Position numbers and translations under genes: made by a program. From an uncultured Clostridia bacterium (GTDB lineage: Bacteria; Bacillota; Clostridia; DUPQ01): DNA of 64,000 nt. The DNA lies in the NCBI GenBank assembly GCA_963766335.1, contig CAVXZA010000002.1, positions 1,615,530-1,679,529 on the forward strand. The letters are read 5' to 3'. Position 1 is the stretch's first letter, and every line of letters starts with the position of its first letter. Shown here piece by piece: positions 7,668-51,348 of the stretch. The notes under the pieces were generated by a model. It was not told the origin of the DNA and made no database searches. It saw only the letters and a program-made list of their open reading frames with translations.

Positions 7668-7669
7668 AT

Positions 7670-10637: not shown

Positions 10638-10654
10638 ATACAGGTAGGAATGTA

Positions 10655-10800: not shown

Positions 10801-10841
10801 TAATTTATTTCCTTTATTTAATAAAAGACAGGAGAATAATC

Positions 10842-13409: not shown

Positions 13410-13574
13410 ATGAAAAAATTAGTGGCTATTTTAGTAGTAGCGGCAATTCTATTATTGGGTGCAGGTTCTGTTCTGGCAGGCGGAGATAAAGTACAGATGG
13501 AAAATCCGGGATTTAATCAGGAGCCAAGTGATCACAATGCAGTAAATCATTGTTTTCAAAATATCAATGACTAA
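13410..13574 (+). CDS. Small secreted peptide (55 aa) with signal peptide
   Basis: MKKLVAILVVAAILLLGAGSVLAGG... with AAAGGA ribosome-binding site 8 nt upstream. The upstream part of the track ORF 13302.. is probably not translated. Confidence 0.4.
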   Translation: MKKLVAILVVAAILLLGAGSVLAGGDKVQMENPGFNQEPSDHNAVNHCFQNIND

Positions 13575-23436: not shown

Positions 23437-24234
23437 TTGAAAATAGTTGACGTTGATAGTGCCAATGAAGGATATTTCATGAATTGCCGCCTTGAGACGG
23501 CATCAGTGAATTATACTGATGGGCAAAAAATCAGAAAAACATATATAGCCAATCATAATAAAAAGGGCCAGGGAATCAAACTTATGATGGATGATGAAGG
23601 TGCGATTGTGGGAAGACTTCACTATGTACCTATTGAATATTCGCCTTTGGTCGGTGAGAATATTCTTGTAATTCTATGTCTTTATATCCATATGTATAAA
23701 CACAATATCGGTGACAAGAGGAATATCGGATATGGCAAGCATTTCCTTGATTACGTAGAGAATGAAGCCGGAAACCGGGGATTTGACGGGGTGGCTGTCT
23801 GGGCAATGGACTGGAACTGGAACCCGGTCTCATTTTATTTTCACAATGGCTATATTGAAGCGGACAGATTAGACAGGGTTGTAGTTGCGTGGAAACCGTT
23901 TAAAAATGAGGCTAGTAAACCAAAACTGGCAAGGATACCTGCAGAATATTTTAATATAGTATCCGAGGATAAAGTTGTTTTGATTTTGGCTGATAATGAT
24001 TGGTGTAATTGCAGGAATAAGATGAATACAGCTATTGAAGCAATCGATGGGATTGAGCACATGGCGGAAGTGCATATTGTTACTGAGAATTCGCCGGGCG
24101 GGTATGTTCATCTCGGTTACGCAGGAGGGATATTCATTGACGGAGAACCCTACCATCCATATCAGCACCTGGGTGGCAGCATTGATTTAAGAGAATATAT
24201 AATTAAGAAATATAAGGAAAAACAGAGTAGCTAA
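23437..24234 (+). CDS. GNAT-like N-acetyltransferase domain protein with C-terminal extension
   Basis: Motif-A-like RNIGYGKHFLDYVENEAGNRGFDGV. TTG start with AAGGAG ribosome-binding site 8 nt upstream. Confidence 0.4.
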   Translation: MKIVDVDSANEGYFMNCRLETASVNYTDGQKIRKTYIANHNKKGQGIKLMMDDEGAIVGRLHYVPIEYSPLVGENILVILCLYIHMYKHNIGDKRNIGYGKHFLDYVENEAGNRGFDGVAVWAMDWNWNPVSFYFHNGYIEADRLDRVVVAWKPFKNEASKPKLARIPAEYFNIVSEDKVVLILADNDWCNCRNKMNTAIEAIDGIEHMAEVHIVTENSPGGYVHLGYAGGIFIDGEPYHPYQHLGGSIDLREYIIKKYKEKQSS

Positions 24235-27847: not shown

Positions 27848-30373
27848 ATGATTGACAGGCTTATATTCGATACTATGTTTGAAAAGATACCCATGGGTGT
27901 TTTCATTGCAGACAGCGAGGGCTATTTTAAATATGTAAACCCCATGGCATGCAATATGACAGGCTACAACATAAATGAACTCATTGGCATGAACAGGATG
28001 GATTTAGTTCCTGATGAATTTAAAGAAATCGCGGTTCGGGTATACGAAGACCTGAAGTCAGATATCGGAGCTGACCAAAAAGTCCCTTATAAAACGAAAA
28101 CCGGCGAAATCAGGACATGGGGAATAAAGACATTGAAGATCGATGGAGCTAATTATGTTGCAATAACAGAGGATATTACCGAATTCGAAAAAATTGTCGA
28201 TCAAAATACTAAATATCTTAACAGGCTCCAGCTTGCAGGAGAAACAGGAAAAGTCGGAAGCTGGGAATATGATGTAAGAACCGGCTCTTTCTGGCGTTCT
28301 TCTGAAGCAACAAGGCAGTTTACAGGCAAAGCCAAGGAAACTACTTGTAATCTTGATGATATAGACAAATATATTGTAAAAAAGGGTACTCTGAAAAAAG
28401 CGATTGATCTTATTCTGAAAACAGGAAAGGAAGCTGAAAAAGAATTCAGTATCATTTCTGATGACGGCACTCTCAAAGTATTGAAAACATACGGTAGGGT
28501 TGTAAGGGAAAAGGATGTTATAACTAAGATAGTCGGAGCCACTGTTGAGATTACAGAAATTAAGCAGGTGCAGGCACAGATTCTTGAGGAGAAGAACAAG
28601 CTTCGGGAGTATCTTGATATTTCAGGAGTAATACTGATTGCTATTGATAATAACGGTATTGTAAAAATGATAAACAAAAAGGGCTGTGAGGTCCTTGGAT
28701 ATAGTGAAAAGGAAATAGTTGGAAAATCCTGGATGGATAATTTTATACCTCAGTATACAAAAACAAAAATTGAAGAAATCCATCGCAACAATATTTTTGA
28801 TTCTGACAAATACATAGAGGAAATGGAAAATCCTATTGTTAATTCAAAAGGCGAGGAGAGGATTATCCATTGGAAAAATACAGTTATGAAGGATTCAAAC
28901 GGCATAGTAGTCGGCAGCCTCTCGTCAGGGGAAGACATAACAGATAAAAAGGTAATAGAAAAAGCACTTGAAGAGAGCGAAATGTCGCTTAAAAAAGCCG
29001 AAATAATTACCAGAAGCGGACATTTTGAAAGGGACCTGGCGACAAATATAAGCAAATGGTCGGACGGGATGTATATTATTCTTGGTTATGAACCCCAGAG
29101 TTTTGAAATAAATTCTGATAAGGAAAATGAACTTTTTACAGCTAAATCGATCAAGAAGCTTGAAAAAGCTTTCCATAATGCTTTAAGAGGTAACAACGAA
29201 TTTGAAATTGAAGTTGAAGCTGTCGCTAAGGATAAAAAAATCCTTGTATTGCTGATGAAAGCGATTATTGAGACTGATGGTAAAAAACCGGTTAAAATGC
29301 TTGCCACATGCCAGGATATTACAGGCAGGAAGGAACACCTGGAACACATTGAGTACATTAGTTACCACGACCAGCTTACCGGACTATATAACCGGCGTTT
29401 CCTTGAGGAGGAATTCAACAGGCTTGATGTCCAGAGGAATTATCCTTTTGCAATTATAATGGCAGATGTTAACGGCCTTAAGCTGGCCAATGACACATTT
29501 GGTCATACTGAAGGCGACCAGATGCTGATAAACACTGCAGAAGTATTAAAGCAGGCGGTCAGGAAGGATGACATAATAGCAAGAATAGGAGGCGATGAAT
29601 TCATGATTCTGCTTCCCAAAATCGAGTGGGCCTATGTTGAGAAGATAATGGGCAGGATACTGGAGTTCTCAAAGGCTTTCCAGACTACAATGCTGCCGCT
29701 GTCAGTAGCTCTTGGATCCGCTGTTAAAGAAGAGAAAAAAGTAAGCCGGGACGAACTGTTTAAAAAAGCGGAAGACAATATGTACAGGAGTAAACTCCAT
29801 GATGTGGGCAGCCGTAGGAACGAGGCAATAAAAATAATATCGGATACCCTTTACGAGAAGAACAAAAGGGAAGAAGCCCATTCCGAGCGGGTCAGCCAAA
29901 TCAGTGTAATGCTCGGGACAGCCGTCGGCCTGACTAGGCCCGAACTGAATGAATTAAAAACCCTTGGGCTTATGCATGATATAGGGAAAATAGCTGTGAA
30001 GGAAGAATTGCTTAACAAACCCTCTGCACTGACTATGGAAGAATTTGAAAACATTAAAATGCATCCGGAGGCCGGGTTCAGGATTTTGAGTACATCAAAT
30101 GATATGGCCGATCTTGCGGAGTATGTACTATCGCATCACGAAAGATGGGACGGGAAGGGATATCCGAGGGGTTTGGCCGGAGAGGATATCCCGATGATGG
30201 CCAGGATAATTGCGATTGCCGAAGCTTATGACGCAATGACCAGCAAAACGCCTTACAGAAGGCCGATGCCGCATAGCAAGGCATATTTAGAAATAAGGAA
30301 AAATTCAGGCAGCCAGTTTGATCCCGTACTCGCTAAAATCTTCCTTCAGGAAGTGTGGCCGGACCTGGCATAA
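27848..30373 (+). CDS. PAS-sensor diguanylate cyclase / HD-GYP phosphodiesterase (c-di-GMP turnover protein)
   Basis: Three PAS-like segments. GGDEF domain with RIGGDEF and YNRRF. C-terminal HD-GYP with HDIGK and HHERWDGKGYP. Confidence 0.85.
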   Translation: MIDRLIFDTMFEKIPMGVFIADSEGYFKYVNPMACNMTGYNINELIGMNRMDLVPDEFKEIAVRVYEDLKSDIGADQKVPYKTKTGEIRTWGIKTLKIDGANYVAITEDITEFEKIVDQNTKYLNRLQLAGETGKVGSWEYDVRTGSFWRSSEATRQFTGKAKETTCNLDDIDKYIVKKGTLKKAIDLILKTGKEAEKEFSIISDDGTLKVLKTYGRVVREKDVITKIVGATVEITEIKQVQAQILEEKNKLREYLDISGVILIAIDNNGIVKMINKKGCEVLGYSEKEIVGKSWMDNFIPQYTKTKIEEIHRNNIFDSDKYIEEMENPIVNSKGEERIIHWKNTVMKDSNGIVVGSLSSGEDITDKKVIEKALEESEMSLKKAEIITRSGHFERDLATNISKWSDGMYIILGYEPQSFEINSDKENELFTAKSIKKLEKAFHNALRGNNEFEIEVEAVAKDKKILVLLMKAIIETDGKKPVKMLATCQDITGRKEHLEHIEYISYHDQLTGLYNRRFLEEEFNRLDVQRNYPFAIIMADVNGLKLANDTFGHTEGDQMLINTAEVLKQAVRKDDIIARIGGDEFMILLPKIEWAYVEKIMGRILEFSKAFQTTMLPLSVALGSAVKEEKKVSRDELFKKAEDNMYRSKLHDVGSRRNEAIKIISDTLYEKNKREEAHSERVSQISVMLGTAVGLTRPELNELKTLGLMHDIGKIAVKEELLNKPSALTMEEFENIKMHPEAGFRILSTSNDMADLAEYVLSHHERWDGKGYPRGLAGEDIPMMARIIAIAEAYDAMTSKTPYRRPMPHSKAYLEIRKNSGSQFDPVLAKIFLQEVWPDLA

Positions 30374-32650: not shown

Positions 32651-32904
32651 CATTTAATATTGCATATAGAAATTTCTCAATAGTTTGAAAATTTATAGCT
32701 GAAGAGTTTAACATTCAGTTTTTTCGTTATATAGCAAACCAAGGTTTTAGACTTGATGTATTAAAAAAAATGATATCTATTGATATTTTTTGTTAAAATT
32801 TAACGGGACTCTTAGCAAATTCGATTGCCAAATGATATAATATCATCGTCGGGGGAACAGGTCATATATAGATAATATAATCTCAGTCTTAGGGGGCGTC
32901 TATA

Positions 32905-35900
32905 ATGAAGAAATTCAGTAAACAAATCAGTCTGCTACTTGTTATTGTTTTATTGAGCTCATATATGCTCACGGGTTGCAAGAAAAAAAACAATAAAACA
33001 GAGGTTTCGCCTAGTCCGGGGACCAGCCAGTCGGCAGCTCCGGCAAACACCTCGACACCACCGCCATCACCAGGACCGACTCAAAGTGCGCCGTCGGAGA
33101 AACCGCCCGAACAGGGGGGGCAGGTTGATCCGTGGATAACAACAGAAGATATTAACAAACCCCCTTCAAATGTTGATGAATTTTTAGACTCAGACGATGC
33201 TGATGCTGGTAATCTGCTTGATGACCCGGCAATTGCTGAAGAAATTCTTGGTGCTGATAATCTAGGAGATTTGGTTGACAGCCCGAGAGATGCTGATCGG
33301 CTGCAGGAACTGGCAGAAGAGATTGAAGAACTGATAGATGAAATGACCGATGATGAGGGCAACGCCCCTGATGAAGAAACTCAGGAAGTCGTCGATCAGC
33401 TTGAAGATATTCAAGAAGCTATTGAGGAGCTTTTTGCAGATGCTGAACCGACACCTGAGCAGCTTGAAGCTACCACGGATCTTAAGGGAACCTGGACAGA
33501 GCCTAACAGCATTATTCTTAGATGGACACCTCAAATTGAATGGTTGCCTGAAGACGGTTATTATCTTTATAGGATAATAGATAATGAAGCAGTTATCGTT
33601 GACCGTGATTTAGGAATGGCATACAAAATATATGAACTTTCAGGCCTTAATTATAATTTCTCCCCGTATGTGGCCGATATATTTAATGACTCAGTTCTTG
33701 ATTCGGCAAAACTGAGTACAATCGGAGTTTCAACTGTACAGCAATTCAACGATTTGGTTTTCAGCGATGTAATACTGAATGACTCTATGATGAAAATCAG
33801 CGGGGCTGAAGAATTTGAAAATCAAAAGAATGATAAATTTATACGGCCTTCAACAATTATTGATAAAGTCCCTATAAAAGATGTATATACAAATACCAGC
33901 ATTCACCTTGCTGCCCAGATAAATACAACAGTAATGTCTATTGCAGAAGTACAGGGATCTGCGACAGAAGCCCCGGGCCCTGTCAAAACTGTGGTTCCGG
34001 CACTGACGCCTGCAGAGGAAACAATACAGCTTGTCCTTGAAGCGAGGAATTCAATGCTTACCCTCGCCAACACTAATTCAGAGTTTGCAACGACAGTTGG
34101 CTTTGGATATGAGGATAATTTCGGCGATGCATCATATACAGCAAACACTGTGATTGAGTACGTTCTGCTCCCGATGAGCGAGGGGGTTTCAGCTCCGGAA
34201 GCATCTGAAATAATTGATGAGTCAGCAAGAACAGGCATGTATTCCCTGAAAGTAAGCTATGGTGCTCAGACACCGATAGAAGTCCCTGAGGATCTTGTGG
34301 GATATGGAATTGACGGCGAGGTTCATTTAAGGTGGAAAGCGCCCGAATCAGATTATGCAAAAAGCATAATATCAGGGTATTATATCGAAAGAAAATTAAA
34401 CGGCGAAACCGACTATACCAGAATTAACGATGTTCCTGTGGCAATATCATATATGGAAGATGAAAATAATATCCTTTATGAAGTTGCAGATTATTATGTT
34501 GATTATGATGTCGAAAATGGGGATAGGGCTACATATAGAGTCCAGGCGCTTGATATATTCGGAAGAGTCAGCGATTACTGCTCGGAACCGCTTTCCATTG
34601 AGGTTGTGAAAACAGTTCCTCCGGGATCGCCGGATCTTGACCAGCCCGTACTGTCAAATGCAATTAAACAGAGGACAGAAAGCTACTTTGAAGACACACT
34701 AACAAAATACCCCGGGGAAACAGGTGTGATACTCCCAATATCAAAAACTACAAGCGATACTGAAAGTTTCATAATTTATAGGAGCGCAGCTTGGGGAACC
34801 GGGCTATTTGCAGAACCTGAAGAACTGGGTCGTATTGAAATACCGGATGATGTACTGCCAAATGAACTTGTGTTGAAAAGTACTGCGGGAACCAGGTTTA
34901 AACTGGTTGCAGATGCTAATTCGGATGATGCGGATGCCGTATTCTATGACGTGAATGTTACACCCGGATATTTTTACAAATATTGGGTGGCGGCTGTTGA
35001 TGCCTGGGGTAATGAAAGCGCGTGGTCAAACTCCAAGGTTCTTGGATATTCTACAGAAAATGAACCGCAGGTTCCCGGGGCTGCATATGCCCGGATGACA
35101 TTTAATCTTCTGCCTGACCTATCATTTGAAGCGGTAGGGTTCCTTAATGGCAGATTCGCCGGGATTGATGTGGTAAAAGAGATTGACTGGGTAGGAAATT
35201 CCAATGACGGCGACATGGTTGCAAGAACAAATGTCGATACAACCCCTGTGCAACAGGCTCTTGTCCAGGACGTTCAAATCGGGATTTCGCTTTCAGATAC
35301 AGTAAGACATGAGTTCGCAATAATTCCGCAGCTTTTAAACCTTGAATACGGCAATATGCCGGAACCGCGTGATGTGCATGACATAATTGCGCTGCAGAGC
35401 AATGACATACTGCCGAATGGCAATGCAGAGGTTTCCTGGTATCATTATGCCGGAGATGGTTTGGGAGCATATAATGTTTTCAGGGCTTATGCAGATGGGG
35501 AAGATATTGATGCAATTAGAAGTCTGTCCATTGAAGAAATCCTAGAGGATTATGACTGGAAGCTTGTTGAAGACAATATTACATACAACCAGATAACAGA
35601 TAATGTGGAACAGCAGTCCGGCAGGATTTACTTATATATGATAGCAATGGTACCTGCCGAAACCAGTTTAGCCGAGGACATCGGCTACACCGGTTATGCG
35701 CCAGCCGGCTGGATTAACCTGACATGGGAACGCCCGGATGATCTTCAGATTTCACACTTCAGAGTATATAAAGCAGAAGTCCCGTATTTCAGTGAAAGCG
35801 ACAATCTTGAATCACTTGACTGGACTATGGTTGGGGATAATCTGAAATACGCAGGCTATACCGAAGAAGCCGACCAGACTCATGCACATTACTACTATTA

Positions 35901-38900
35901 TAAAGTTACTTCTGTAAGTATTTGGGGAGTAGAAACAAATTTATATTCATCAGCAGAAATCAGGGTGGCTTCTACAGTTCCTCCGCAGGCGCCTACAATG
36001 CTCATCCCATTCCCGCAGAAAGCGAGTGTTGAGGTTCGGTGGATGGGTGTGCCGTTTGCCAGTTCCTATAAAATATTCAAGACAAAGGTTCCTAGAGTCA
36101 CAGAAGCCGATATTGAAGCCATTCAGGTTAAAGCGCCTGAGATGTTTAATAAGATCTTCATGCCGGAAATAAGCATTCAGATTTATATGCCGGATGAGCT
36201 GATAGTTCCGTTTTCAAATGAGAATCCTTCAATTGGATATATGGCTTCAGGGACTAGTATTCCCTCAGCCAGTGTATCTGAAGCGGTGTCTAATTTTAAT
36301 ACACTGCAGTTGCTGTCACCTACTGCCATAATGGATAGCATCAAGACATCACCGGTCAATACAAAAGTGGATGTTTATAAAACTATTGTAGATAAATACG
36401 GTATCCTTGCAGTGTCCCCATACGGACTTCTTGACTCATCGGCAGCAAAATTAATACCATGGGATGAAATATATGTCGAGGAAATTCCTTTAGGTTCTGA
36501 GTCAACAGGCGAATTCTCATTTGTAGATACTGATGTTGAGTTCGGTGACACATATATGTATACGGTACAGGCATGGAATGACGATGAATTAGCTTCAGAA
36601 CGGCCTGAACCTGTAAGTGTGTCGCCGCGTAAGGGCGAGGCTTTCCCACCGGTTTCAGGCATATCGGCTAAGATAGACACAGACACAGGGCAGCCGGAAA
36701 TCACCTGGAATGCTGCAAAAGATCCTAATCTTAGCATTGAGGAAAGTGCAGAATTCATAGCTGGATACATTGTATACAGAAGTAAAACTCAGAACGGTGT
36801 GTACTATCAGGCCAGTCCGTTCCTAACGGCAACCGGCTATATTGATGATGAGGCAGATCCTGCTGCGGTTAACTGGTATAAAGTTAAGGTCATCGACACC
36901 GGCGGATATACATCTGAGTTTTCTAATGCTGTCTCAACAGGTGGGCAAAGGAATTTCATATTGGCTCCAAGTTCTATTCAAAAAAGGATTATAGAACCAA
37001 TAAGAATCATTCCGATTATTCCGATAATACCTCCGATAGGCGGAGAAGAACCACCGACTGTGCCGGATACTACAGCATCAACAACATCAATCAATTTTCC
37101 TATTTACACGATTCCTCCAATAATCATAATACCTGTAACGCTTCCCGAGTCGGTTAAACTTGCAGGTTTTGATATAACAAATGTTGTGACAACAGACAAT
37201 GGAACACCTAAAAAGGCAACCGGCGATCTTGTTTTGGCAAATAAATATACGATTCCTGTCAATCTTACTGTCAGTAACTGGAGCAGCGAGGGAGAAATCA
37301 CCAATGGGTATGCCTCGCTTCAGGGTAACGTTGAAATTGGTGATACCGGAACATTCCTCAGCGCCCTGTATGTCAGTACAGCTTCTAACAATGGAGTCGC
37401 ATCCGGATACGTTTTAAAAGCAGGTAATCAGGGAACGGAAAATCTTATAGGCGACCTATACTCGCTCAGATTCAGCGGCAGTGAGATAACGCCTGGCGGG
37501 ATAATAAAAATCACTGATATTCCTGAATTCCGGTACAACAATATTAAAATGTCAGACATGGAAAGCATAACTGTTAACCTTGGTGCATTTGACGCCAGCG
37601 CACCGGCTGTAATTCAACAGGAAAGCATATTCAAGGGCGGATATACCATTTATTTCATGTATGGAACCGGCTTTATAAACATGATGAACGGGACTGCTGA
37701 AAATGACCTTGGAATGGAAACAGTTGATAACAAGGGGCTTGTGTTCAGCTATAGTATTATTAATTTTGACCGGAACGGAGCCCTTAACGGTACAATGACT
37801 ATCGATGAAAATCAACTTATGCGCACTGTCATTCCATCGGGGCTTGGGATAAAAACATCAGATGCCAAGCTGGTATATTCCAATGGTGTTGCCGATACTA
37901 CCCAAAGTTATCTTAATGGCAAGATAATGCTTCCTTTCAGAATGTTTGTAGATGATTCGCCTGTGAATACAGACTTTCTGTCAATGGCATCTAGGACACT
38001 CGGAGATGTGCCGATGAATAATATCAATATCTCCAGTATTCTAGATATGAATCCGGTATTGATTCAATCCGGTTCCCAGGCAGTAAGCAAAGCTGAAAAG
38101 AGCATAATTGATGTTGGAATGTACTATGTGGCTGAAAGGGCGCAGGAACAAACGCTGCTTGTTATGCCGGCCGAAGCGATTGACCTAGAATATTTTTCGA
38201 ATATTCCTATCAATGTTTCGGGATGGGACGGCCGCGGATTTACTGTTATAAACAAAACATTGAAACCAACCCTTGTCGGAAACGATGATGAGGAAGTAGG
38301 TGTAATAGGCAGCAATGTCACTATAGACCTCGACCGCGAAGCATTTACTTCAGCCGCAACTACAACCGAGACAATGGAAGATGTATGGACCGGAATGATT
38401 GTGAAATCCGGCCGTGTGTCCTTGCCTCCTGCATATATTCAAACAGAAGATGGCAAAAGGGTTTCCTTCGTACTATCACCAGGCGATATGCTATATGACA
38501 GAAATGGATTTGCATACCAAAGCCAGGCATATTCGCCGCAGGGCATTCCGGTTAATTTTGGCGACCAGTTAGGCAACTTTGAAGATGTATACGCCCATAG
38601 TATATACATTGATTTGTATAATAACGAAGTTAACATGGAGGTCAAAGCATCTCTCGGCATACCTTTGTTTGGATTCCAACGGGTTGATGTAAGGCTTTAT
38701 ACATCAGAAGAACTGGGTAAACTTGTGTGCAGTGTCGATGAAACTGAGAAATTTGACCCTGCAGGAACCGGTGAGGTATTTATAAGTATTTCCGGCGGGC
38801 ATCTGATGGAAGACGGACTGCATATGGACGGCACCCTCGACCTACAGTTTACCAACTCAATTGATATGAGCAACATTGCATTTACAGAATTGATAATCCC

Positions 38901-40443
38901 TGCGGACATGGAAGCCCTGAAGGTGGAAAATAACCCTGAAGGCCTTCTTGGTTCAGCTATGTTCGATAAACCGTATAAGATACAATTCCACGATTTTGAT
39001 ATGGAAATCAGGGCTCTGTCATTGACAACCAGGGATGCGCCCTTCCAAGTAACATTGCTTCCGCTGCAATTGGGGACAGGCATAAAAAGAACATTTATGG
39101 GTGTTGGAAAAACCATGCCGATATCCGGGACAGTGAATTATTATGCCAGCGACCTGTTCCTCTGGGGCGGAATGCAGTTATCAGATACTCTCGCTATCGA
39201 TACTGAAGAGGATTTTGACAGGGTAGTTATCTCCGGTGTATTTGAAGATCCCGTTATCAGTTACTCTGAATCCAAATCCAAGATTGATATGGAATTCGAA
39301 GAATTTGCGCAGATTGATGCGGTGGCAACACCTAAGATGGTAGATCCTTCGTCCGGAATAATTGAATATGATACCGAAAACCTGGAAATGATATTTAATA
39401 CAGCGGCAGATATCTTCAGCGGAGTGGAGCTTGAGTGTAATGCCCGCCTTGGATACGACAAAGTGATGAGTAGATTTTTCTTCGCTCTTGCAATTTATTA
39501 CCATGACCCGAATGGGGGCATTAAATTTGCATATGGAAGCATTAACGACTTGACAGGCGTAATCGGGTACAACCTTGACATTGAATACACCGATGAAACC
39601 GGCTATTACATACCTGACGGAAAACAAGGTTTGTTTAACTATATTGACGATATGGATGTAAATCGAGATTCCGGCGGTAATTATTTCTTCGCAGCATCCG
39701 CATTTATGACTATAGGATATGAAACCAGCGGAGGTACCATTAAACTTGGTGAAGTCAGGAATATGTACCTTATCATTGAAAAAGGACCTACGGTAGAAAT
39801 GGGTGGCAAGTATTATGGACCTTCAACGATAACGTCACTAACTACAGGGAATGATCTCAAGCATATGGGAACAGTCAGAATAGGTTATTATCACAAAGAC
39901 AGGTTATTTAAATTCAGCCTGACATTGAATGACTTTGGAATGTATGGCCTGACAGTAAACGGTGATGTGGGATTTGAAATGAGTCCGAAATACTGGGAAC
40001 TTCGGATTGGATACCCTAATACGCTAGTTGCTGAACTCGGTAGTTTGGCTAGTGCGGGATTTGGTCTGATTATCCACACTTCGTTCCCTCCTTCAGAAAG
40101 CTATATGAAAACAAAGATGTTCTTTGAATTCGACACCGGATATGTGACCATAGCCATTGTTTATTTCCGGGCTTATCTGAGCATAGGCGCCGAGGGAGAG
40201 ATAAATATTCCGGAAAACTACATGTATTTCACTGCATGGATTAAAGGAGGCCTTGAGGGCGGAATTAAGGTTGGCGGAAAGAGATATGAAATAATTTCAC
40301 TGCATCTTGATGCAGTCGGCGAACTGGAAAAACGCCAGAGCGATTGGCGGCTTGAGGCTAAAGTCAAAGTGCGATACCACTTAAATTTGTTCTTGTTTGA
40401 TGTGGGTGGGTCTGTAACCTGGCACATGAAGCTGAAATTCTAG
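32905..40443 (+). CDS. Giant (2512 aa) surface lipoprotein with multiple FN3-like domains and C-terminal beta-barrel-like region
   Basis: Signal peptide + lipobox LTGC (Cys25). S/P/T-rich then D/E-rich low-complexity region (residues about 75-190). At least 6-7 FN3-like modules with W...Y...Y/V patterns. IPIIPIIPP Pro/Ile linker (about nt 36990-37150). About 1100-aa C-terminal region with alternating amphipathic strands ending ...VGGSVTWHMKLKF. GGGGG ribosome-binding site. Confidence 0.8.
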   Translation: MKKFSKQISLLLVIVLLSSYMLTGCKKKNNKTEVSPSPGTSQSAAPANTSTPPPSPGPTQSAPSEKPPEQGGQVDPWITTEDINKPPSNVDEFLDSDDADAGNLLDDPAIAEEILGADNLGDLVDSPRDADRLQELAEEIEELIDEMTDDEGNAPDEETQEVVDQLEDIQEAIEELFADAEPTPEQLEATTDLKGTWTEPNSIILRWTPQIEWLPEDGYYLYRIIDNEAVIVDRDLGMAYKIYELSGLNYNFSPYVADIFNDSVLDSAKLSTIGVSTVQQFNDLVFSDVILNDSMMKISGAEEFENQKNDKFIRPSTIIDKVPIKDVYTNTSIHLAAQINTTVMSIAEVQGSATEAPGPVKTVVPALTPAEETIQLVLEARNSMLTLANTNSEFATTVGFGYEDNFGDASYTANTVIEYVLLPMSEGVSAPEASEIIDESARTGMYSLKVSYGAQTPIEVPEDLVGYGIDGEVHLRWKAPESDYAKSIISGYYIERKLNGETDYTRINDVPVAISYMEDENNILYEVADYYVDYDVENGDRATYRVQALDIFGRVSDYCSEPLSIEVVKTVPPGSPDLDQPVLSNAIKQRTESYFEDTLTKYPGETGVILPISKTTSDTESFIIYRSAAWGTGLFAEPEELGRIEIPDDVLPNELVLKSTAGTRFKLVADANSDDADAVFYDVNVTPGYFYKYWVAAVDAWGNESAWSNSKVLGYSTENEPQVPGAAYARMTFNLLPDLSFEAVGFLNGRFAGIDVVKEIDWVGNSNDGDMVARTNVDTTPVQQALVQDVQIGISLSDTVRHEFAIIPQLLNLEYGNMPEPRDVHDIIALQSNDILPNGNAEVSWYHYAGDGLGAYNVFRAYADGEDIDAIRSLSIEEILEDYDWKLVEDNITYNQITDNVEQQSGRIYLYMIAMVPAETSLAEDIGYTGYAPAGWINLTWERPDDLQISHFRVYKAEVPYFSESDNLESLDWTMVGDNLKYAGYTEEADQTHAHYYYYKVTSVSIWGVETNLYSSAEIRVASTVPPQAPTMLIPFPQKASVEVRWMGVPFASSYKIFKTKVPRVTEADIEAIQVKAPEMFNKIFMPEISIQIYMPDELIVPFSNENPSIGYMASGTSIPSASVSEAVSNFNTLQLLSPTAIMDSIKTSPVNTKVDVYKTIVDKYGILAVSPYGLLDSSAAKLIPWDEIYVEEIPLGSESTGEFSFVDTDVEFGDTYMYTVQAWNDDELASERPEPVSVSPRKGEAFPPVSGISAKIDTDTGQPEITWNAAKDPNLSIEESAEFIAGYIVYRSKTQNGVYYQASPFLTATGYIDDEADPAAVNWYKVKVIDTGGYTSEFSNAVSTGGQRNFILAPSSIQKRIIEPIRIIPIIPIIPPIGGEEPPTVPDTTASTTSINFPIYTIPPIIIIPVTLPESVKLAGFDITNVVTTDNGTPKKATGDLVLANKYTIPVNLTVSNWSSEGEITNGYASLQGNVEIGDTGTFLSALYVSTASNNGVASGYVLKAGNQGTENLIGDLYSLRFSGSEITPGGIIKITDIPEFRYNNIKMSDMESITVNLGAFDASAPAVIQQESIFKGGYTIYFMYGTGFINMMNGTAENDLGMETVDNKGLVFSYSIINFDRNGALNGTMTIDENQLMRTVIPSGLGIKTSDAKLVYSNGVADTTQSYLNGKIMLPFRMFVDDSPVNTDFLSMASRTLGDVPMNNINISSILDMNPVLIQSGSQAVSKAEKSIIDVGMYYVAERAQEQTLLVMPAEAIDLEYFSNIPINVSGWDGRGFTVINKTLKPTLVGNDDEEVGVIGSNVTIDLDREAFTSAATTTETMEDVWTGMIVKSGRVSLPPAYIQTEDGKRVSFVLSPGDMLYDRNGFAYQSQAYSPQGIPVNFGDQLGNFEDVYAHSIYIDLYNNEVNMEVKASLGIPLFGFQRVDVRLYTSEELGKLVCSVDETEKFDPAGTGEVFISISGGHLMEDGLHMDGTLDLQFTNSIDMSNIAFTELIIPADMEALKVENNPEGLLGSAMFDKPYKIQFHDFDMEIRALSLTTRDAPFQVTLLPLQLGTGIKRTFMGVGKTMPISGTVNYYASDLFLWGGMQLSDTLAIDTEEDFDRVVISGVFEDPVISYSESKSKIDMEFEEFAQIDAVATPKMVDPSSGIIEYDTENLEMIFNTAADIFSGVELECNARLGYDKVMSRFFFALAIYYHDPNGGIKFAYGSINDLTGVIGYNLDIEYTDETGYYIPDGKQGLFNYIDDMDVNRDSGGNYFFAASAFMTIGYETSGGTIKLGEVRNMYLIIEKGPTVEMGGKYYGPSTITSLTTGNDLKHMGTVRIGYYHKDRLFKFSLTLNDFGMYGLTVNGDVGFEMSPKYWELRIGYPNTLVAELGSLASAGFGLIIHTSFPPSESYMKTKMFFEFDTGYVTIAIVYFRAYLSIGAEGEINIPENYMYFTAWIKGGLEGGIKVGGKRYEIISLHLDAVGELEKRQSDWRLEAKVKVRYHLNLFLFDVGGSVTWHMKLKF

Positions 40444-40483: not shown

Positions 40484-40515
40484 CCACCGGGTATATTTAT
40501 CACCCGGTGGTTTTT
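40484..40515 (+). terminator. Rho-independent terminator after giant gene
   Basis: ccaccgggt...acccggtgg + ttttt. Confidence 0.75.
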
Positions 40516-40643: not shown

Positions 40644-43553
40644 TCAAGTCAAAAAATCACGTTGTATCATACTCTGCAACTCATCGATTTCTTTAAAACA
40701 CTCAATAATTACAACTTCCTCCAAATGGCTGAATTGACTCGGGTCAATCCAATTATCAAGTTTTTGGTTGTGCTCAAAAGCAGAAGCTTGATTCCATAAC
40801 CGTAAACGCATAAGCGTCTCATATGCAGTGATGATATCCCGGTGCTTGGAATCCAAAATAATTCCCAGGCCTTTGATATCGTCAAGTTGAAGCAATGTAT
40901 TTGATTCGTCTATCGAGTTTTTCAAAGAGTAGAGGCGTGCAAAGGCAACAATTGCCATAGCAGGTGTTTTCACATCTATTAAACCCGGATGCTCTTTCCC
41001 TCCTGATGCTACGATATTGCCAAATAATCGTAAAGGCGTTTTGAAAATCAAGGCATTCTTGGCAACCTGTGATAAGAAGAATGGATTGTTCTGTACTTCA
41101 GAAAAAATATACTTGCGTAGTTCTGTAGCTAAATCCAGGTCGCCTGATACTGTCCGAAGATCAAATAAAATGCAAAACTCAACCACTTGCTGCGGCTCAG
41201 AGCCGTGAATCCATTTTTCAAAATATGATTTCCAGACAGATAGTGGCTGGTTCCATTCGGGATTGCTTGCGATTTTATTGCCAATGCACTTTTTATACCC
41301 GGCCTGCTCCAGGGTATTGCAAACTATTGTTGCCAATTCCATAAAGTATTCTTCAACAGCTTTTTTATCATCATTATCAGTTAACTCATATATAATTGCA
41401 TTATCCTGGTCGCTGAAAAGTGTTTGTGATTGCCTGCCATGACTCCCTGATGCTAAAAAGGCAAAGGATGTTGGCGGTTTACCTATTTCTTTTATGGTAA
41501 GTTCAATGATTTTTTGTGTGGTCAGATCAGTTATCAACGAAATCATATAAGCTATTGCGACCGAGGATGTGCCGTTTTCCAGGAGAGGAACAATCAGGTC
41601 GGCTGTTTTTTTGCATAGATTAATAACATCGTTTATATGATAGGCATTTTTTATAGAATCAGCTAAATCCGAGGCAATATTGCTTGGAATATGGAGTAAA
41701 CGATTCAGGGCTACATGCGGTCCGGTGAACTCTGCTAGATCATCTGAACGCCTGACAAGTATCATGAAGCCTGACGTCGGATCATTCAAGCCTTTCTTTA
41801 CAGTCATGCTGCAACTAAGCAGGGTTCCGTCAATACGGCGTAAAACCCCGTTATGTAAATTGGCTGCATCGTGTTCATGAACTGAGAAAAGAAATGATAA
41901 CCATTCCTTATTGACTTTGATGTCAGGGAAAATGTCCATTAAGTCTAATAGTTCTATTGTATCTTCAGTACATTCAAGCAACTCGTACATTACTGTATTT
42001 GCATATCTGCAGCGCCCGTTATATACAAATAATGCACCTTCAGATGCGGCATCAGTCAGCGACTGATAGCGCTCAATTGATTCAAGAAGCAGCTTCTCAG
42101 CTTCTATCCGTGATTTTTCCAATTTTATGCTCTGCCTGATTAAATATAGCATTAATAAGATAACAATTGCTATAATCACAAGCGATATCTTAACAATATT
42201 TCCGCGCAGCAATGCAATTTCTGCATGTACATCATTGACGTATATACCGGTTCCAATTACCCATCCCCATGGTTCGAATAGCCTGATGTACGACTCTTTT
42301 GGCTCCTGTCTTTCAGTTTCATCCATCCATTGCCAAACATAACTTATGTATCCTTCGCCCTTTTCTAATACAAGATCAGAGAAAGCTACAAATATCCTGG
42401 TGCCCTGTGCATCCTGATAGTCTGATACATCTTGATTATTCAAATCTTTTCGATATGGGTGCATGAGTATTCGCGGAGTTGTATCCTGCAGCCAGAAATA
42501 GTCTTTATTGTCAACACCATAGCGCATGGCCTCTATGCGGTTCTTAGCCAGTGTTTGAGCCTGTTCCAGTGACAACTGGTTATTTTCGACTTCCTCGGCA
42601 GCTTCATTTAGAACTCCCCAGGCTACTTGTGTAAGCTGCCTGATATTTTCACGCTTTCGTTCAAGCAAGGTATCCTCAAAATATGGAATAAGGATTGCGA
42701 AAAGAGCAATTATAAATAGTGCCACCGATAGTATTACAGGAAGTAAAAAGTTTATTGCAAAGGAAAACCATTTTGTCTTTTGTCTCTTTGGCGATTGCAG
42801 ATTCTGAACAGCAGCAGGTTGAACATAATTAGAAGATGCCCGTATAAGTGCGTCGCGGAATGCTTTCCAATATTTCGTCTTTATAACTTTGCCCGGATCT
42901 ATTTCGGTAGGTAAATGGTAGTCGGTACCGGCAGACATAAGCAGGTTTGATTTTGTGGCAATTTCCACTAATTTGGCTTCTTTTTCAGAAGAATTCGGAC
43001 CATAAAATGCCTCGATACCATCAAGTCCTAGATTTTGCAGTTCATCAACCAGTTCCTGAATCTTTTTTATGTCAGGTTCAGTTTGATATGGATGGGCTAA
43101 AAAGGCTATACCACCGGCCCTATGAATGATTTCTATGATTTCCTGGGCCGTCCGGTAAACCTGTGGCTTTATGTGACTGGTTGCATCAGCATTACTATTT
43201 TTTTCATTTAATAGGGTGACTAACTCAGGGTGTTCTGGGTTAAATCCATAAGCCAGTAAATGGATTATTTGGTCTTTAAGTTCCGTCGTAATTTCAAGCC
43301 CTGAGACATAGCCAATGCCATACTGTTTAAGTGCCTTTTTGAATGCAGGACATCCTACTATAGTGTTATGGTCAGTAAGTGAAGCAAATTTTATTTCATG
43401 CTCAGATAGATTTTTAGCAATTTGCTCCGGTAATAAAGTGCCGTCGCTGAATACAGAATGGCAGTGCATATCAACGCATATATTATCTGCTATCGATTCA
43501 TCCCGATAGGTTTCTTTTTTCATTAAAGTTTCTTGAATCTGGTTAAATTTCAT
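40644..43553 (-). CDS. Membrane sensor protein: PHP phosphoesterase - TM - Cache - TM - PAS - DUF294-type nucleotidyltransferase
   Basis: N-terminal PHP motifs (CVDMHCHSVFSDG, TDHN, AHP, GTDYH). Two TM helices flank a Cache-like domain (YFWLQD...GWVIGTGIYV). C-terminal Pol-beta-type NTase motif GSHGRQSQTLFSDQDNAI (nt about 41405-41460) plus DUF294_C-like helical domain. Confidence 0.7.
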   Translation of the reverse strand: MKFNQIQETLMKKETYRDESIADNICVDMHCHSVFSDGTLLPEQIAKNLSEHEIKFASLTDHNTIVGCPAFKKALKQYGIGYVSGLEITTELKDQIIHLLAYGFNPEHPELVTLLNEKNSNADATSHIKPQVYRTAQEIIEIIHRAGGIAFLAHPYQTEPDIKKIQELVDELQNLGLDGIEAFYGPNSSEKEAKLVEIATKSNLLMSAGTDYHLPTEIDPGKVIKTKYWKAFRDALIRASSNYVQPAAVQNLQSPKRQKTKWFSFAINFLLPVILSVALFIIALFAILIPYFEDTLLERKRENIRQLTQVAWGVLNEAAEEVENNQLSLEQAQTLAKNRIEAMRYGVDNKDYFWLQDTTPRILMHPYRKDLNNQDVSDYQDAQGTRIFVAFSDLVLEKGEGYISYVWQWMDETERQEPKESYIRLFEPWGWVIGTGIYVNDVHAEIALLRGNIVKISLVIIAIVILLMLYLIRQSIKLEKSRIEAEKLLLESIERYQSLTDAASEGALFVYNGRCRYANTVMYELLECTEDTIELLDLMDIFPDIKVNKEWLSFLFSVHEHDAANLHNGVLRRIDGTLLSCSMTVKKGLNDPTSGFMILVRRSDDLAEFTGPHVALNRLLHIPSNIASDLADSIKNAYHINDVINLCKKTADLIVPLLENGTSSVAIAYMISLITDLTTQKIIELTIKEIGKPPTSFAFLASGSHGRQSQTLFSDQDNAIIYELTDNDDKKAVEEYFMELATIVCNTLEQAGYKKCIGNKIASNPEWNQPLSVWKSYFEKWIHGSEPQQVVEFCILFDLRTVSGDLDLATELRKYIFSEVQNNPFFLSQVAKNALIFKTPLRLFGNIVASGGKEHPGLIDVKTPAMAIVAFARLYSLKNSIDESNTLLQLDDIKGLGIILDSKHRDIITAYETLMRLRLWNQASAFEHNQKLDNWIDPSQFSHLEEVVIIECFKEIDELQSMIQRDFLT

Positions 43554-45794: not shown

Positions 45795-47165
45795 ATGCGT
45801 GAATATATTTTACATCCGTGGCGGGTGAGTATGCGAACCAACTGCCATGATAGGTTTGAACCATTACACAAATACGTCGGCAACCCGGTTTTTACAGGCG
45901 GACAGCCGTGGGAGCCAAGGACTGCATGGCCAACGGTTCTGTTTATTCCAGAAGAAAATCTCTTTAAAATGTGGTATCTGGCAATAGTCGAAGGGGAAGA
46001 TGACACAGATGATGTCCTCGTGATTGACAATGCAGTTGTAAAGAAGAATAAGTTTTATATCTGCTATGCCGAATCTTCTGACGGGATAGAATGGGAACGG
46101 CCTGAGCTTAATATTATCAGGGCGAAGAAATATCCCGGCAACAATATAATAATTGAAAATACGGGAAGGTATGTTGACGGACCTTCAGTTGCCTATGACC
46201 CCGGAGACCCGGACTCGGCCAGACGTTATAAGGCTGCATATTATGAGCATGATGGCAAGAAAATGGGTGTAAGGACCAAAGTGTCGCCTGACGGAATTCA
46301 TTGGACTGAAGAAGGGGAGTTTCCGGTGCTTCCCAGCCAGGATGCTATGAAAATGTACCATGACGCAGAAGCCGGTATGTTCTATATGTTGCTTAAGGAC
46401 AGGATTATGAACAGACGCTCAAGGCTGGTGTCGGAAAGCAGGGATTTTAAGAACTGGAGTGAACCGCGGGAATTTCTGGCCCCGAACCTGGGTGATAACG
46501 ATACAACAAATTTCTATGATATGTGCATGTTTAAAAACGGTGATATTACCATGGCTTTTGCAACTATTTTTGATGCAGCCACACAGTTCTCGCACTCTGA
46601 ACTCATCATGTCTGAACCCGGTTCAATCGCAGAAAGATTTCCGGCGCGGCCGGCTGTACTGAATCCAGGTGATTATGGTTCATGGGACGGCGGTGGAGTA
46701 TATACTTCATCCGGCGCGCCGATTGAGTTCAATGGTAAAATGCGGTACTACTATTACGGCTCCTCCAGACGGCATGACAGTTACCTTTTCCAAGAGAAAT
46801 ATAAAAAGATGATAGGTGATGATGTATGCTGGACCGGACTAGGGTTCGCCGAATATGACAAAGGAAGACTTTGCGGGCAGCAATTTCTGGGAGAAGGGAT
46901 GGTCGAGACAACAGCCATTAGAAAATCGGGGGCGAAACTTTACGTAGATGCAGTTGTACCTGAAAAACTTCGGGTTTCAATCACACGCTGCGGTTATTCC
47001 ATGCCATATGAAGGGTTTTCAGGAGACAAGTGCCGTCCGATATCCGGTGATGGATTGTTTGAAATAAGCTGGCCGGGGAAAACTTTAGATGATATCACTG
47101 ATGATTACATAAGGATCAAGGTCGAAGGAAAGAACGCCATTATATATGGCTATAGGTTTGAATGA
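45795..47165 (+). CDS. Hypothetical protein, possible five-bladed beta-propeller glycosidase/phosphorylase-like (GH43/GH130-like)
   Basis: Repeated SxDGxxW-type motifs (SSDGIEWE, SPDGIHWT), D/E-rich blades. No secretion signal. Confidence 0.3.
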   Translation: MREYILHPWRVSMRTNCHDRFEPLHKYVGNPVFTGGQPWEPRTAWPTVLFIPEENLFKMWYLAIVEGEDDTDDVLVIDNAVVKKNKFYICYAESSDGIEWERPELNIIRAKKYPGNNIIIENTGRYVDGPSVAYDPGDPDSARRYKAAYYEHDGKKMGVRTKVSPDGIHWTEEGEFPVLPSQDAMKMYHDAEAGMFYMLLKDRIMNRRSRLVSESRDFKNWSEPREFLAPNLGDNDTTNFYDMCMFKNGDITMAFATIFDAATQFSHSELIMSEPGSIAERFPARPAVLNPGDYGSWDGGGVYTSSGAPIEFNGKMRYYYYGSSRRHDSYLFQEKYKKMIGDDVCWTGLGFAEYDKGRLCGQQFLGEGMVETTAIRKSGAKLYVDAVVPEKLRVSITRCGYSMPYEGFSGDKCRPISGDGLFEISWPGKTLDDITDDYIRIKVEGKNAIIYGYRFE

Positions 47166-49039: not shown

Positions 49040-49193
49040 GCTTCCCCCATACCATTAAATAATATCATCAGGCAGCTGACGGCACAATAAAAACACGCAA
49101 AATCCATTTTAAGTTGATTTTCAGTTTGCCCGAAATACCATTGGGGCTTATACTGGAATGGGGTTATTATTCAAATCTTTGGGGGCAAGTTTT

Positions 49194-51020
49194 ATGGCTA
49201 TATATGAGTGCAGGGAAAATAACGAGAACCACATAAAAATAAGCAAGGATGCATGCGAATCGGTTATATTCGGGACAAAAAAAGTAGTATCCGGCATCTG
49301 CAATGCTTTTTCCTCAAATCAAGGGAAGCTAAAAATAGCCTTTGACGGCTGGTATGGAATAGAATGGGATTCCATTCTTGAAAAGATTGTAAAAGCCTGC
49401 AGTGAAATGGGGGTATCTATTGAGACAATTCATTCAAGTGCAAATTTTCTTAACAAGGAAGGTTTAGAGAGGTATAAACAGAAGTTTATCACCGAGGACC
49501 CTGCGTTTGGCTGGGAAAACCTTGACGGAACCATAGAAGACATATTGGATTCGAAAAAAACTAAGCAAACTAAAGATATTTTTGATAATAATGATTTTAG
49601 CTCAGATGTGCTGATTATATATGGCCCCGGATGTACGGCAGGAGGCTTGGCAGACAGCTGCGACCTCATATATTATTTTGACAAACTGGTTCAGTATGTT
49701 CTGCTGATGATGTGGGATTCCAAAATCGAACCCTTTGGCTATGATGCGCCTGAAAAAGAATATTTCTGGAAAGAATATTATTACTGCGATTATCATCTGC
49801 TGCTTAAACATAAACTTAATATAGCTGGTAGGATGGATTACTATATCGACGCATTGGAAACGGATGATCTTAAGATGCTTCCGCGCGCAGCTTATGACGA
49901 GATTATCAGGGCTTTAGTTAGCTATCCGGTCAAATGCATTGAAACATACCAGGGAGGTCCCTGGGGGGCTTACCGATTTAAGCAACTTGAGGATATCAAA
50001 GGGCTTGAGTGCAATGCCTGGCATACTATGACCAGCCCCGACCTTAGTATGGAGGTCGATTTCGGAGGGGAAAAAATGCTAAACCTGCCGTTTATCCTTC
50101 TGATGCAATATCCTGAAAAGCTTGTTGGTAGTTATGTGTCCCAAGAATACCCGATGTTGTTCCCGTTCCAGGTAGGGCTTGATGACGGTTGGTTCCCCAA
50201 ACCCATGCCCAGGGAAAGAACTGCCATGCCCATGCATAACCATCCGGGCATTGACTACTGCAGAAAACATTTCAATGAAATCTACGGCAGGTATGAGACC
50301 TATTATATTGTAGAAGCATATGAAAACGGCGGTTCTTTCATGGGATATAAGGATGACTGCGACCTGGAGGAATGGGAAAGGAAATGCAGGGAGTCCGATA
50401 ATACAGCCTTGATTTCTGATTGGCAGGATTACTGTAAATTCTGGGATACTAAGACAGGAGACCTGTTTTTAATTCCCCCCGGTACGGTTCATGGGCACGG
50501 GGGCAACCAAATGGTACTGGAAATGGATACCTGCCCCGCAATTGCCGGAAATGAATATTCTTTTTTCCTTCATGATTTTGCCAGAAAAACCTGGGATGAT
50601 AATAAAAAAACCATGACTGGCAAACCAATGAGAATGCATCTGGACCATGGATTTGACAATGAGCATTGGAGAAGAGAATCGTATATAAAAGAAAATCTCA
50701 GAGCCAGGCCGAAAGTAGTTTATTCAAAGGATGATTATTGCATTGAGAGATATTCTTCAATTACTGAAATGCCGTTCCATATTGAAAGAATTCACTATTA
50801 TGACCGTGCGGAATATTCAACTTATGGCAAATATACGCATGTACTTACCCTTACCCGCGGCAAGAGGGCGATGATTAGGTCGCTGAATAATCCGGAGCAT
50901 AAGGCTGAGATCGTAAGGTATCATAATGCTGTGATACCGGCGGCATTCGGAGATTATGAGCTTATAAGCCTGGATGGAGGATTTAACACCATAGTTCTGA
51001 TAAGGCTTAAGAAAGGCTGA
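49194..51020 (+). CDS. Hypothetical protein with C-terminal cupin resembling type I phosphomannose isomerase
   Basis: HNHPG...FLIPPGTVHGHGGNQMVLE pattern similar to the PMI zinc/cupin core. About 230-aa N-terminal extension. Start 49194 (GGGGG ribosome-binding site) preferred over 49158. Confidence 0.3.
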   Translation: MAIYECRENNENHIKISKDACESVIFGTKKVVSGICNAFSSNQGKLKIAFDGWYGIEWDSILEKIVKACSEMGVSIETIHSSANFLNKEGLERYKQKFITEDPAFGWENLDGTIEDILDSKKTKQTKDIFDNNDFSSDVLIIYGPGCTAGGLADSCDLIYYFDKLVQYVLLMMWDSKIEPFGYDAPEKEYFWKEYYYCDYHLLLKHKLNIAGRMDYYIDALETDDLKMLPRAAYDEIIRALVSYPVKCIETYQGGPWGAYRFKQLEDIKGLECNAWHTMTSPDLSMEVDFGGEKMLNLPFILLMQYPEKLVGSYVSQEYPMLFPFQVGLDDGWFPKPMPRERTAMPMHNHPGIDYCRKHFNEIYGRYETYYIVEAYENGGSFMGYKDDCDLEEWERKCRESDNTALISDWQDYCKFWDTKTGDLFLIPPGTVHGHGGNQMVLEMDTCPAIAGNEYSFFLHDFARKTWDDNKKTMTGKPMRMHLDHGFDNEHWRRESYIKENLRARPKVVYSKDDYCIERYSSITEMPFHIERIHYYDRAEYSTYGKYTHVLTLTRGKRAMIRSLNNPEHKAEIVRYHNAVIPAAFGDYELISLDGGFNTIVLIRLKKG

Positions 51021-51060: not shown

Positions 51061-51089
51061 TGACAGTTGTATGGTATTGATTTAGAATG
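51061..51089 (+). promoter_or_regulatory. Sigma-A type promoter for alaS leader
   Basis: TTGACA - 17 nt - TAGAAT. Confidence 0.6.
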
Positions 51090-51094
51090 AAACT

Positions 51095-51306
51095 GCGTTC
51101 ATGGGGACGAGTAACCGGAGGATTAGTTTCAGAAAGAAAGCGGTTGATGAGAGCTTTTACATGAAACCGGCGAAGGCTGACCCACAGCATCCTTTCCCAA
51201 TAAGTAAGGACGACTAAACCGCGTTAAGGTTCCGAGTGCTTCCGTAAGGAAGAATCAGGGTGGTACCGCGAGTAACTCTCGTCCCTTTCAGGGATGGGGG
51301 TTTTTT
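51095..51306 (+). promoter_or_regulatory. T-box: T-box riboswitch leader (tRNA-Ala responsive)
   Basis: Conserved T-box sequence AATCAGGGTGGTACCGCG at 51253-51270. Terminator hairpin cgtccct...agggatggg + tttttt at about 51280-51306. Candidate GCU specifier at 51176-51178. Confidence 0.85.
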
Positions 51307-51348
51307 AATTTTAGGGAAATCCTGCAACTATAATATTTGAGGTGTAAG

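Follow-up and report, generated by a model that had tools for sequence, protein, structure and literature searches.

A giant protein of Clostridia with a predicted N-terminal tether, a putative stalk of FN3-like modules and a family-specific β-rich C-terminal module

The 64,000-nucleotide stretch of DNA analysed here (hereafter the window), which comes from an uncultured Clostridia bacterium, carries at positions 32905-40443 an open reading frame (ORF) for a protein of 2512 amino acids. This is the largest gene of the window, as a first-pass annotation made from the sequence alone had stated, the next largest ORF encoding 1002 amino acids. With moderate confidence, we propose that this giant protein is a surface protein of a monoderm member of the Clostridia that is tethered to the membrane and spans the wall, combines an extensible spacer with a new β-rich head and serves in binding or adhesion. 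The protein would be exported by the Sec system and held by its N-terminus on the outer face of the cytoplasmic membrane through a lipidated Cys25, a tethering role that an uncleaved signal anchor would play in other members of the family. The stalk would consist of an acidic segment, preceded by a Pro/Ser-rich tether and followed by about seven FN3-like modules; its length, probably some tens of nanometres, would suffice to span a Gram-positive wall, and a linker slot would tune its reach. The distal module of 1100 amino acids would then act as an all-β head, with its hydrophobic face most likely buried by self-folding, or else binding a partner surface or a ligand, so as to make the whole protein a long-reach binding or adhesion device. 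The following lines of evidence bear on this proposal.

First, using a combination of searches (a word-indexed search, a scan of a one-genome-per-species collection covering about 185,000 species of Bacteria and Archaea, and a profile search of 1.84 billion representative proteins), we found that the giant protein belongs to a family of its own. The word-indexed search returned 18 relatives and the species collection 62 loci of patchy distribution, while the profile of the C-terminal module matched 117 of the 1.84 billion proteins, all of them with the same architecture or fragments thereof. This module always forms the C-terminal end of its protein, which is 2100-3200 amino acids long, and the exhaustive profile search found no relatives outside the family. 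Scans of the giant protein and of the family alignments against Pfam, NCBIfam, PHROGs and PADLOC gave no meaningful match, and a sequence search of the PDB with the module profile found no relatives, only galectin noise at E ≥ 0.07. The DUF6603 domain was considered and rejected: its single weak match (E 0.055) was limited to one of 11 members, a set of 18 divergent members gave no such match, and the literature searched does not mention this domain. At the level of sequence, these data support the view that the C-terminal 1100 or so amino acids are an orphan restricted to this family, i.e., something new, as the first-pass annotation had anticipated for the case of a monoderm host.

Second, the host appears to be of the right kind. 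All 62 loci are, by title, from metagenome-assembled genomes (MAGs) of Bacillota/Clostridia, with labels such as Clostridiaceae, Oscillospiraceae, Lachnospiraceae, Christensenella, Ruminiclostridium, Thermoclostridium, Lutispora, Acetivibrionales, Caldicoprobacterales, Saccharofermentanales and Tissierellia. None of the 62 belongs to the Negativicutes, the Halanaerobiales or the Limnochordia, which are the three diderm lineages of the Firmicutes named in PMC10628300. The window itself bears Firmicute hallmarks, namely the cdaA-ybbR-glmM-glmS cluster with a glmS ribozyme, a T-box leader in front of alaS and a cyclic di-GMP (c-di-GMP)-II riboswitch. Together, the taxonomy of the relatives and these features of the 64-kb window support a monoderm host. 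The isolate names suggest that many of the family MAGs originate from anaerobic digesters or bioreactors.

Third, the N-terminus has the features of a membrane tether. The lipobox LTGC of the first-pass annotation is present, since the sequence MKKFSKQISLLLVIVLLSSYM-LTGC25 comprises a Lys-rich n-region and a hydrophobic h-region, near the end of which L22-T-G-C25 matches the lipobox pattern [LVI][ASTVI][GAS]C; the motif predicts the lipidation and processing of Cys25. The lipobox is kept in the clade of the window (P0001-P0011) and in a few other family members, whereas all the other complete members have an uncleaved hydrophobic N-terminal signal anchor, many of them without the Cys; therefore, it is the tether itself that is the conserved feature of the family. 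A sequence scan of the giant protein found no further transmembrane helix and no LPXTG-like motif, and no SLH, cell-wall-binding (CWB) or sporulation domain was matched in Pfam or NCBIfam. Beyond the signal peptide and a Pro/Ser/Thr-rich stretch lies the acidic low-complexity segment already recognised in the first-pass annotation; its extreme acidity occurs in the clade of the window only, and its conserved core is the motif L..P.I..EIL.A..L.D.V.S. The run of eight adenines that had been reported behind the lipobox Cys codon exists, at 32983-32990 and not at 32981-32988. As a phase-variation switch this tract is unsupported; it encodes a conserved Lys-rich stretch directly after the lipobox Cys.

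Fourth, the N-terminal half of the protein contains about seven FN3-like modules, the first and the sixth of which are split by helical inserts. At least six such modules had been proposed from sequence motifs, and the quoted motifs are found where FN3-like modules lie (HLRWKAPESD...YRVQALD at residues 474-550; ITWNAAKDP...YKVKVID at residues 1266-1331). The fold search agrees with this proposal, whereas the Pfam fn3 hidden Markov model (HMM; PF00041) gave no match in the giant protein at E ≤ 1. When the AlphaFold2 (AF2) model of residues 186-1352 was searched with Foldseek, only tandem arrays of FNIII domains were returned (probability 1.00; 366 matches at E ≤ 1e-3), among them titin, MyBP-C, gp130-type receptors, Dscam and contactin, with a TMt of at most 0.64 (sDscam FNIII2-3). 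This result is driven by confident β islands in a model of low confidence (overall predicted local distance difference test score, pLDDT, 52). Profile-profile comparison with hhalign related module 2 to module 7 (94% probability) and module 4 to module 5 (90% probability), the remaining modules being weakly related. The model-based assignment of the modules to the FN3 fold is thus supported by the fold search and not by the Pfam HMM. Module 3 carries an invariant motif, YKYWV.A.D.W.NES.WS.

A comparison of the FN3 copy number across homologs had been suggested, and its outcome is twofold: the length of one slot varies, and that of the modules does not. Each FN3-like module is conserved in position and near-constant in length among members that share 25-80% identity; therefore, the modules are not variable-number repeats. 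The length variation is confined to the linker that follows module 7, which spans 19-487 amino acids across the family and in which the two Pro/Ile-rich strings pointed out earlier were located (IPIIPIIPP at residues 1369-1377; PPIIIIPV at residues 1404-1411). Remote members bear canonical fn3 (best E 1.7e-67), PKD, Big_13 and He_PIG domains, none of which occurs in the protein of the window, as well as Invasin_D3 and Big domains. Judging from the lengths of the modules, we infer that these extra domains sit in the linker slot.

In that it would project a distal functional module on an array of the Ig superfamily (FN3-like domains), the giant protein resembles both the intimins and invasins (type Ve) and the giant Ig/FN3 adhesins of Gram-positive bacteria. 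It differs from intimin, which has an N-terminal barrel (PF11924), by its lipobox signal peptide and its C-terminal barrel-like region; from the LPXTG adhesins by its N-terminal lipid or transmembrane tether, which takes the place of a C-terminal LPXTG anchor; and from the adhesins with Ig/FN3 repeats by modules that are divergent and conserved in position, and by a distal module that is an orphan of 1100 amino acids.

Fifth, the C-terminal module is conserved throughout the family and is predicted to be β-rich. The AF2 model of residues 1412-2512, computed from 11 sequences (pLDDT 71; predicted template modelling score, pTM, 0.44), is nearly all-β with one helical insert. Its part b contains the invariant motifs WDG.GF and YD.NGF.YQ. 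From about residue 2017 onwards, it forms a meander. The strands of this meander, about 20 in number and 9-19 residues long, mostly have tight turns at both ends, and the first third is interrupted by two long, poorly modelled loops. The β periodicity noted in the first-pass annotation is real and conserved in the family, but it extends over about 500 amino acids and not over 250: the strict alternation of hydrophobic and polar residues is kept across the family, and one strictly hydrophobic face of 11-17 residues per strand is maintained at 25-80% identity. No internal repeats were detected in the module by hhalign (all probabilities below 4%). The invariant residues of the family are nearly all G, P, W, Y or F, i.e., structural; therefore, no catalytic-type motif is evident.

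The protein ends, as stated in the first-pass annotation, with ...VTWHMKLKF, and the family keeps an amphipathic final strand. By contrast, the terminal aromatic residue, which had been interpreted as the β-signal of an outer-membrane protein (OMP), is not conserved. The last residue is F in 29 members, G in 22, L in five, I in three, W and K in two each, and Y, V and M in one each, so that Phe terminates about half of the family and an aromatic C-terminal β-signal is not one of its features. In the AF2 model, the last 20 residues (pLDDT below 50) and with them the final strand are unplaced. The covariation test for the closure of a barrel (52 non-redundant sequences; Neff 24) was underpowered, its adjacent-hairpin control rising only about one standard deviation above background, and in it the top non-adjacent partner of the last strand was the strand 2382-2393, not the first strands.

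What the meander does with its hydrophobic face separates our proposal from its main rival. According to the latter, the C-terminal 500 or so amino acids are a lipid-contacting β-sheet carried at the tip of the stalk, either an OMP-like barrel inserted independently of BAM or a belt like that of ApoB, and directed to a foreign membrane (of a partner or prey cell, or of vesicles) or to a hydrophobic or lipid substrate. We regard such a sheet as possible, though doubtful. It is worth noting that the best Foldseek match of the C-terminal model is the β-belt of ApoB-100 (9bde_A; E 3.5e-7; probability 0.97) with a TM-score of about 0.12, and that LptD, the SlpA protein of Deinococcus (8ae1, 7zgx), ushers and porins come next, TamA being also among the matches. 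The ApoB belt is an amphipathic sheet with its hydrophobic face on lipid, and AF2 collapses this lipid-bound belt into compact shapes when the lipid is absent (PMC11839476). A poor global fit would thus be expected of a lipid-contacting sheet and, for the same reason, neither the curvature nor the closure of our model should be over-read. The conservation of the hydrophobic face at 25-80% identity and the amphipathic final strand, ended by Phe in about half of the members, also argue in favor of this rival. Against it, the TM-scores of all C-terminal fold matches are only 0.1-0.3, with about 200 residues aligned; the model does not place the final strand; most strands have tight turns at both ends, whereas those of OMPs alternate long loops and short turns; amphipathic strands are equally expected in a soluble two-layer sandwich or taco; and no lipid-related genes were found among the neighbours. 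To our knowledge, a single-chain OMP-like barrel has no precedent in monoderms, although no dedicated literature search was made.

Like the β-belt of ApoB-100, the giant protein would have a long, continuous, amphipathic and antiparallel β-sheet with inserts, but with about 20 strands as compared to 120 in ApoB, in a bacterial, surface-tethered protein whose binding of lipid is hypothetical; a vitellogenin-type N-terminal domain was not matched in it with Pfam. As for the β-barrels of outer membranes (TonB-dependent receptors, porins, LptD, BamA/TamA and the β-domains of autotransporters), the giant protein differs from them in that its host lineage is monoderm; it has no similarity to them in sequence or profile, and the fold alignments cover only about 200 residues at TM-scores of 0.1-0.3, so that a closed barrel would be hypothetical; its strands mostly have short turns at both ends and its terminal aromatic residue is not conserved; and it is the opposite, N-terminal, end of the protein that is tethered to the cytoplasmic membrane. 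The more specific version of this rival, in which a monoderm displays a lipid-contacting OMP-like barrel or ApoB-like belt on a wall-spanning stalk, and inserts it into, or wraps it around, its target without BAM, we consider slightly more doubtful than the lipid-contacting sheet as such. If true, this head would be, as far as we know, the first such β-sheet module for membranes or lipids to be known from Gram-positive bacteria. It might also be a relic or a re-use of an outer-membrane-type architecture in a lineage without an outer membrane.

Less likely than the lipid-contacting sheet, and in our opinion rather improbable, is a structural role in the envelope, where the giant protein would be a wall-spanning spacer, or be associated with an S-layer or with sporulation, rather than being a binding device. 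A fixed architecture with every module conserved in position would suit such a role, as would a single-copy chromosomal gene lying amid housekeeping genes. SlpA, an envelope protein of Deinococcus, is among the Foldseek matches, and the SlpA/OmpM proteins share with the giant protein an overall plan in which an anchor is followed by a long stalk and, at the C-terminus, by a large β-sheet domain. They differ from it by their SLH domains, their coiled-coil stalks and their real outer membrane, which were not found in, or do not apply to, the giant protein. Furthermore, Pfam and NCBIfam matched no SLH, cell-wall-binding or sporulation domain in the protein; the family is patchy (62 loci among about 185,000 species) and therefore no core part of the envelope; and its variable spacer suggests that reach matters.

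The remaining rivals are unlikely. One of them, to which we give very little weight, makes the giant protein a TamB/AsmA-like or bridge-like lipid-transfer protein, i.e., an anchor followed by a long β-taco, the hydrophobic groove of which would conduct lipids across the envelope. The likeness lies in the N-terminal tether, be it a lipid or a signal anchor (all complete family members carry a hydrophobic anchor), in the very long, mostly-β polypeptide that follows, with its C-terminal amphipathic meander, and in the presence of LptD and TamA among the fold matches. The sequence profiles speak otherwise, hhalign giving probabilities of 0.5% for Escherichia coli TamB and 0.2% for LptD, while no DUF490/TamB or AsmA domain was matched in Pfam or NCBIfam. 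In addition, the protein has no detectable internal repeat units, more than half of it is a stalk of discrete FN3-like modules unable to conduct lipid, it lacks a TamA partner, and a monoderm has no outer membrane, hence no second membrane, to receive lipid.

An autotransporter- or intimin-like adhesin with a lipid anchor and a C-terminal barrel inserted by BAM in the outer membrane of a diderm, as the first-pass annotation had envisaged for a diderm host, appears even less probable. The terminal ...W.M.L.F fits the generic pattern of a β-signal, but G, L, I, K, V or M is the last residue of many members. The hosts are without exception Clostridia-type Bacillota (62 of the 62 loci), none being from a diderm lineage of the Firmicutes; no autotransporter (PF03797), intimin or OMP family of Pfam or NCBIfam was matched at E ≤ 1; and the hhalign probability against Ag43 is 0.7%. 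The topology is also wrong for both types Va and Ve, since about 1400 amino acids of folded domains separate the conserved N-terminal tether from the barrel-like region, the meander of which has about 20 strands and not 12. Least probable of all is an artefact or cargo (a chimera made in assembly, a pseudogene, a polymorphic toxin, an enzyme or a phage protein), for which the unusual size and the lack of annotation would speak, since the homologs are full-length at 64-81% identity, the remoter ones keep the same domain order in dozens of independent assemblies, which excludes the chimera that the first-pass annotation had named as a way to be wrong, the C-terminus is conserved and not polymorphic, no immunity-like neighbour is conserved, no match in PHROGs or PADLOC and no relative in a scan of viral contigs were found, and the invariant residues are structural with no conserved catalytic motif seen.

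Several points also weigh against the proposal of a tethered, wall-spanning binding protein. Its putative function is deduced from the architecture alone. The models are moderate for the C-terminal part and poor for the N-terminal part, and the hydrophobic face of the modelled meander may be either buried or exposed. Typical adhesins are built from near-identical repeats that vary in number, whereas in this family each of the modules is conserved in its own right, which hints at a machine more specific than a generic adhesin. Lastly, the monoderm status is drawn from 64 kb of a 2.45-Mb contig and from the relatives, not from a direct search for BamA or Lpt proteins.

Giant surface proteins are common. 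What sets this family apart is that it is unannotated, occurs only in MAGs of uncultured Clostridia-type Bacillota and bears an orphan head of 1100 amino acids. A predicted OMP- or ApoB-like meander in cells without an outer membrane raises the question of whether monoderms use large single-chain amphipathic β-sheets on their surface, where such sheets could, for instance, contact foreign membranes or hydrophobic substrates. Even in a conservative reading, the family is a clean case of a stalk that is fixed except for a single, extensible spacer slot, and its C-terminal module is a new domain family worth curating.

Table 1. Features of the giant gene and of its product. Positions are those of the window; residues are those of the 2512-amino-acid protein.
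Feature	Residues	Positions	Strand	Basis or remark
Promoter-like site TTAGCA-18-TATAAT, extended -10 TG		32812..32841	+	10/12 consensus matches; consensus match only
Ribosome-binding site AGGGGG, 8 nt 5' of ATG		32891..32896	+	Read from sequence
ORF of the giant protein	1-2512	32905..40443	+	2512 aa, ATG start
Signal peptide with lipobox L-T-G-C25, putative N-terminal membrane tether	1-25	32905..32979	+	
Pro/Ser/Thr-rich low-complexity tether	26-74	32980..33126	+	Composition
A8 homopolymer encoding Lys directly after the lipobox Cys		32983..32990	+	Lys-rich stretch kept in homologs
Acidic segment, 42 D/E vs 3 K/R	75-189	33127..33471	+	
FN3-like module 1, helical insert of ~160 aa	190-459	33472..34281	+	DSSP of model, fold search
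FN3-like module 2	460-570	34282..34614	+	Model, fold search, hhalign
FN3-like module 3	571-722	34615..35070	+	Model, fold search
Inter-module segment	723-814	35071..35346	+	pLDDT below 50
FN3-like modules 4 and 5	815-927, 928-1026	35347..35982	+	Module 5: low-confidence model
FN3-like module 6, helical insert of ~115 aa	1027-1243	35983..36633	+	Model, fold search
FN3-like module 7	1244-1346	36634..36942	+	hhalign, model, fold search
Pro/Ile-rich linker	1347-1416	36943..37152	+	Sole length-variable slot of the family
C-terminal module, part a, β-rich	1417-1690	37153..37974	+	pLDDT 77-91 in first 150 residues
C-terminal module, helical insert	1691-1762	37975..38190	+	Helices, low pLDDT
C-terminal module, part b, β-rich	1763-2016	38191..38952	+	pLDDT 74-89
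C-terminal amphipathic β-meander	2017-2512	38953..40440	+	Conserved final strand GSVxWxMxLxF
Intrinsic terminator: 9-bp stem, 9-nt loop, then TTTTT		40484..40515	+	Read from sequence

From the ribosome-binding site, the promoter-like site and the terminator read from the DNA (Table 1), the giant gene looks like a monocistronic unit. The stem-loop of the terminator (40484-40510), which lies about 40 nucleotides past the stop codon and is followed by five T, had been overlooked by a consensus scan because its loop of nine nucleotides exceeds eight. This terminator may be bidirectional, as it is also downstream of the convergent sensor gene that the first-pass annotation had correctly placed next to the giant gene (40644-43553, minus strand). 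The sensor gene encodes an unusual fusion of 969 amino acids, which comprises PHP, Cache and PAS domains and a DUF294 nucleotidyltransferase with its substrate-binding domain, the Cache sensor being flanked by hydrophobic segments.

The giant gene lies among housekeeping genes, and the family as a whole has no conserved neighbour. In the closest relatives (L001-L006), the giant gene is syntenic with genes for an aldo-keto reductase, an AEC-family transporter and a PAS-PAS-GGDEF-HD-GYP protein, the last of which is encoded in the window at 27848-30373 (plus strand), about 2.5 kb upstream of the giant gene. The domain content of this neighbour hints at a possible control of the giant surface protein by c-di-GMP. 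In a remote subfamily only (L034, 377-1819, plus strand, and 10 other loci), a gene for a polytopic membrane protein of about 480 amino acids accompanies the giant gene, in most cases upstream of it and in the same orientation. This membrane protein ends in a LuxR/GerE helix-turn-helix and therefore could be a membrane-embedded one-component regulator. At four loci, a DUF3592/DUF2500 membrane protein is encoded between it and the giant gene.

Elsewhere in the window, the c-di-GMP-II riboswitch (12846-12929, plus strand) precedes two small ORFs, 12976-13266 and 13302-13574, which encode a 4Fe-4S ferredoxin-like protein of 96 amino acids and a small membrane protein of 90 amino acids, respectively; they look like an unusual cargo for this class of riboswitch. 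The Firmicute-type cdaA-ybbR(cdaR)-glmM-glmS cluster spans 5324-12611. Its glmS ribozyme (10649-10800, plus strand) overlaps the mechanically called GTG start of the glmS ORF (10791-12611), the true start of which is probably an internal ATG (MCGIIG...). The T-box leader (51089-51289, plus strand) lies directly upstream of alaS (51337-53964). Four ORFs have no match in Pfam: 45795-47165 (plus strand; 456 amino acids), 49158-51020 (plus strand; 620 amino acids), 955-1941 (minus strand; 328 amino acids) and 23437-24234 (plus strand; 265 amino acids). At the edge of the window (52-864, plus strand), we noticed a gene for a protein with a pterin-binding (MtrH/CdhD-like) methyltransferase domain, which would be in keeping with a C1 or corrinoid metabolism of an anaerobe.

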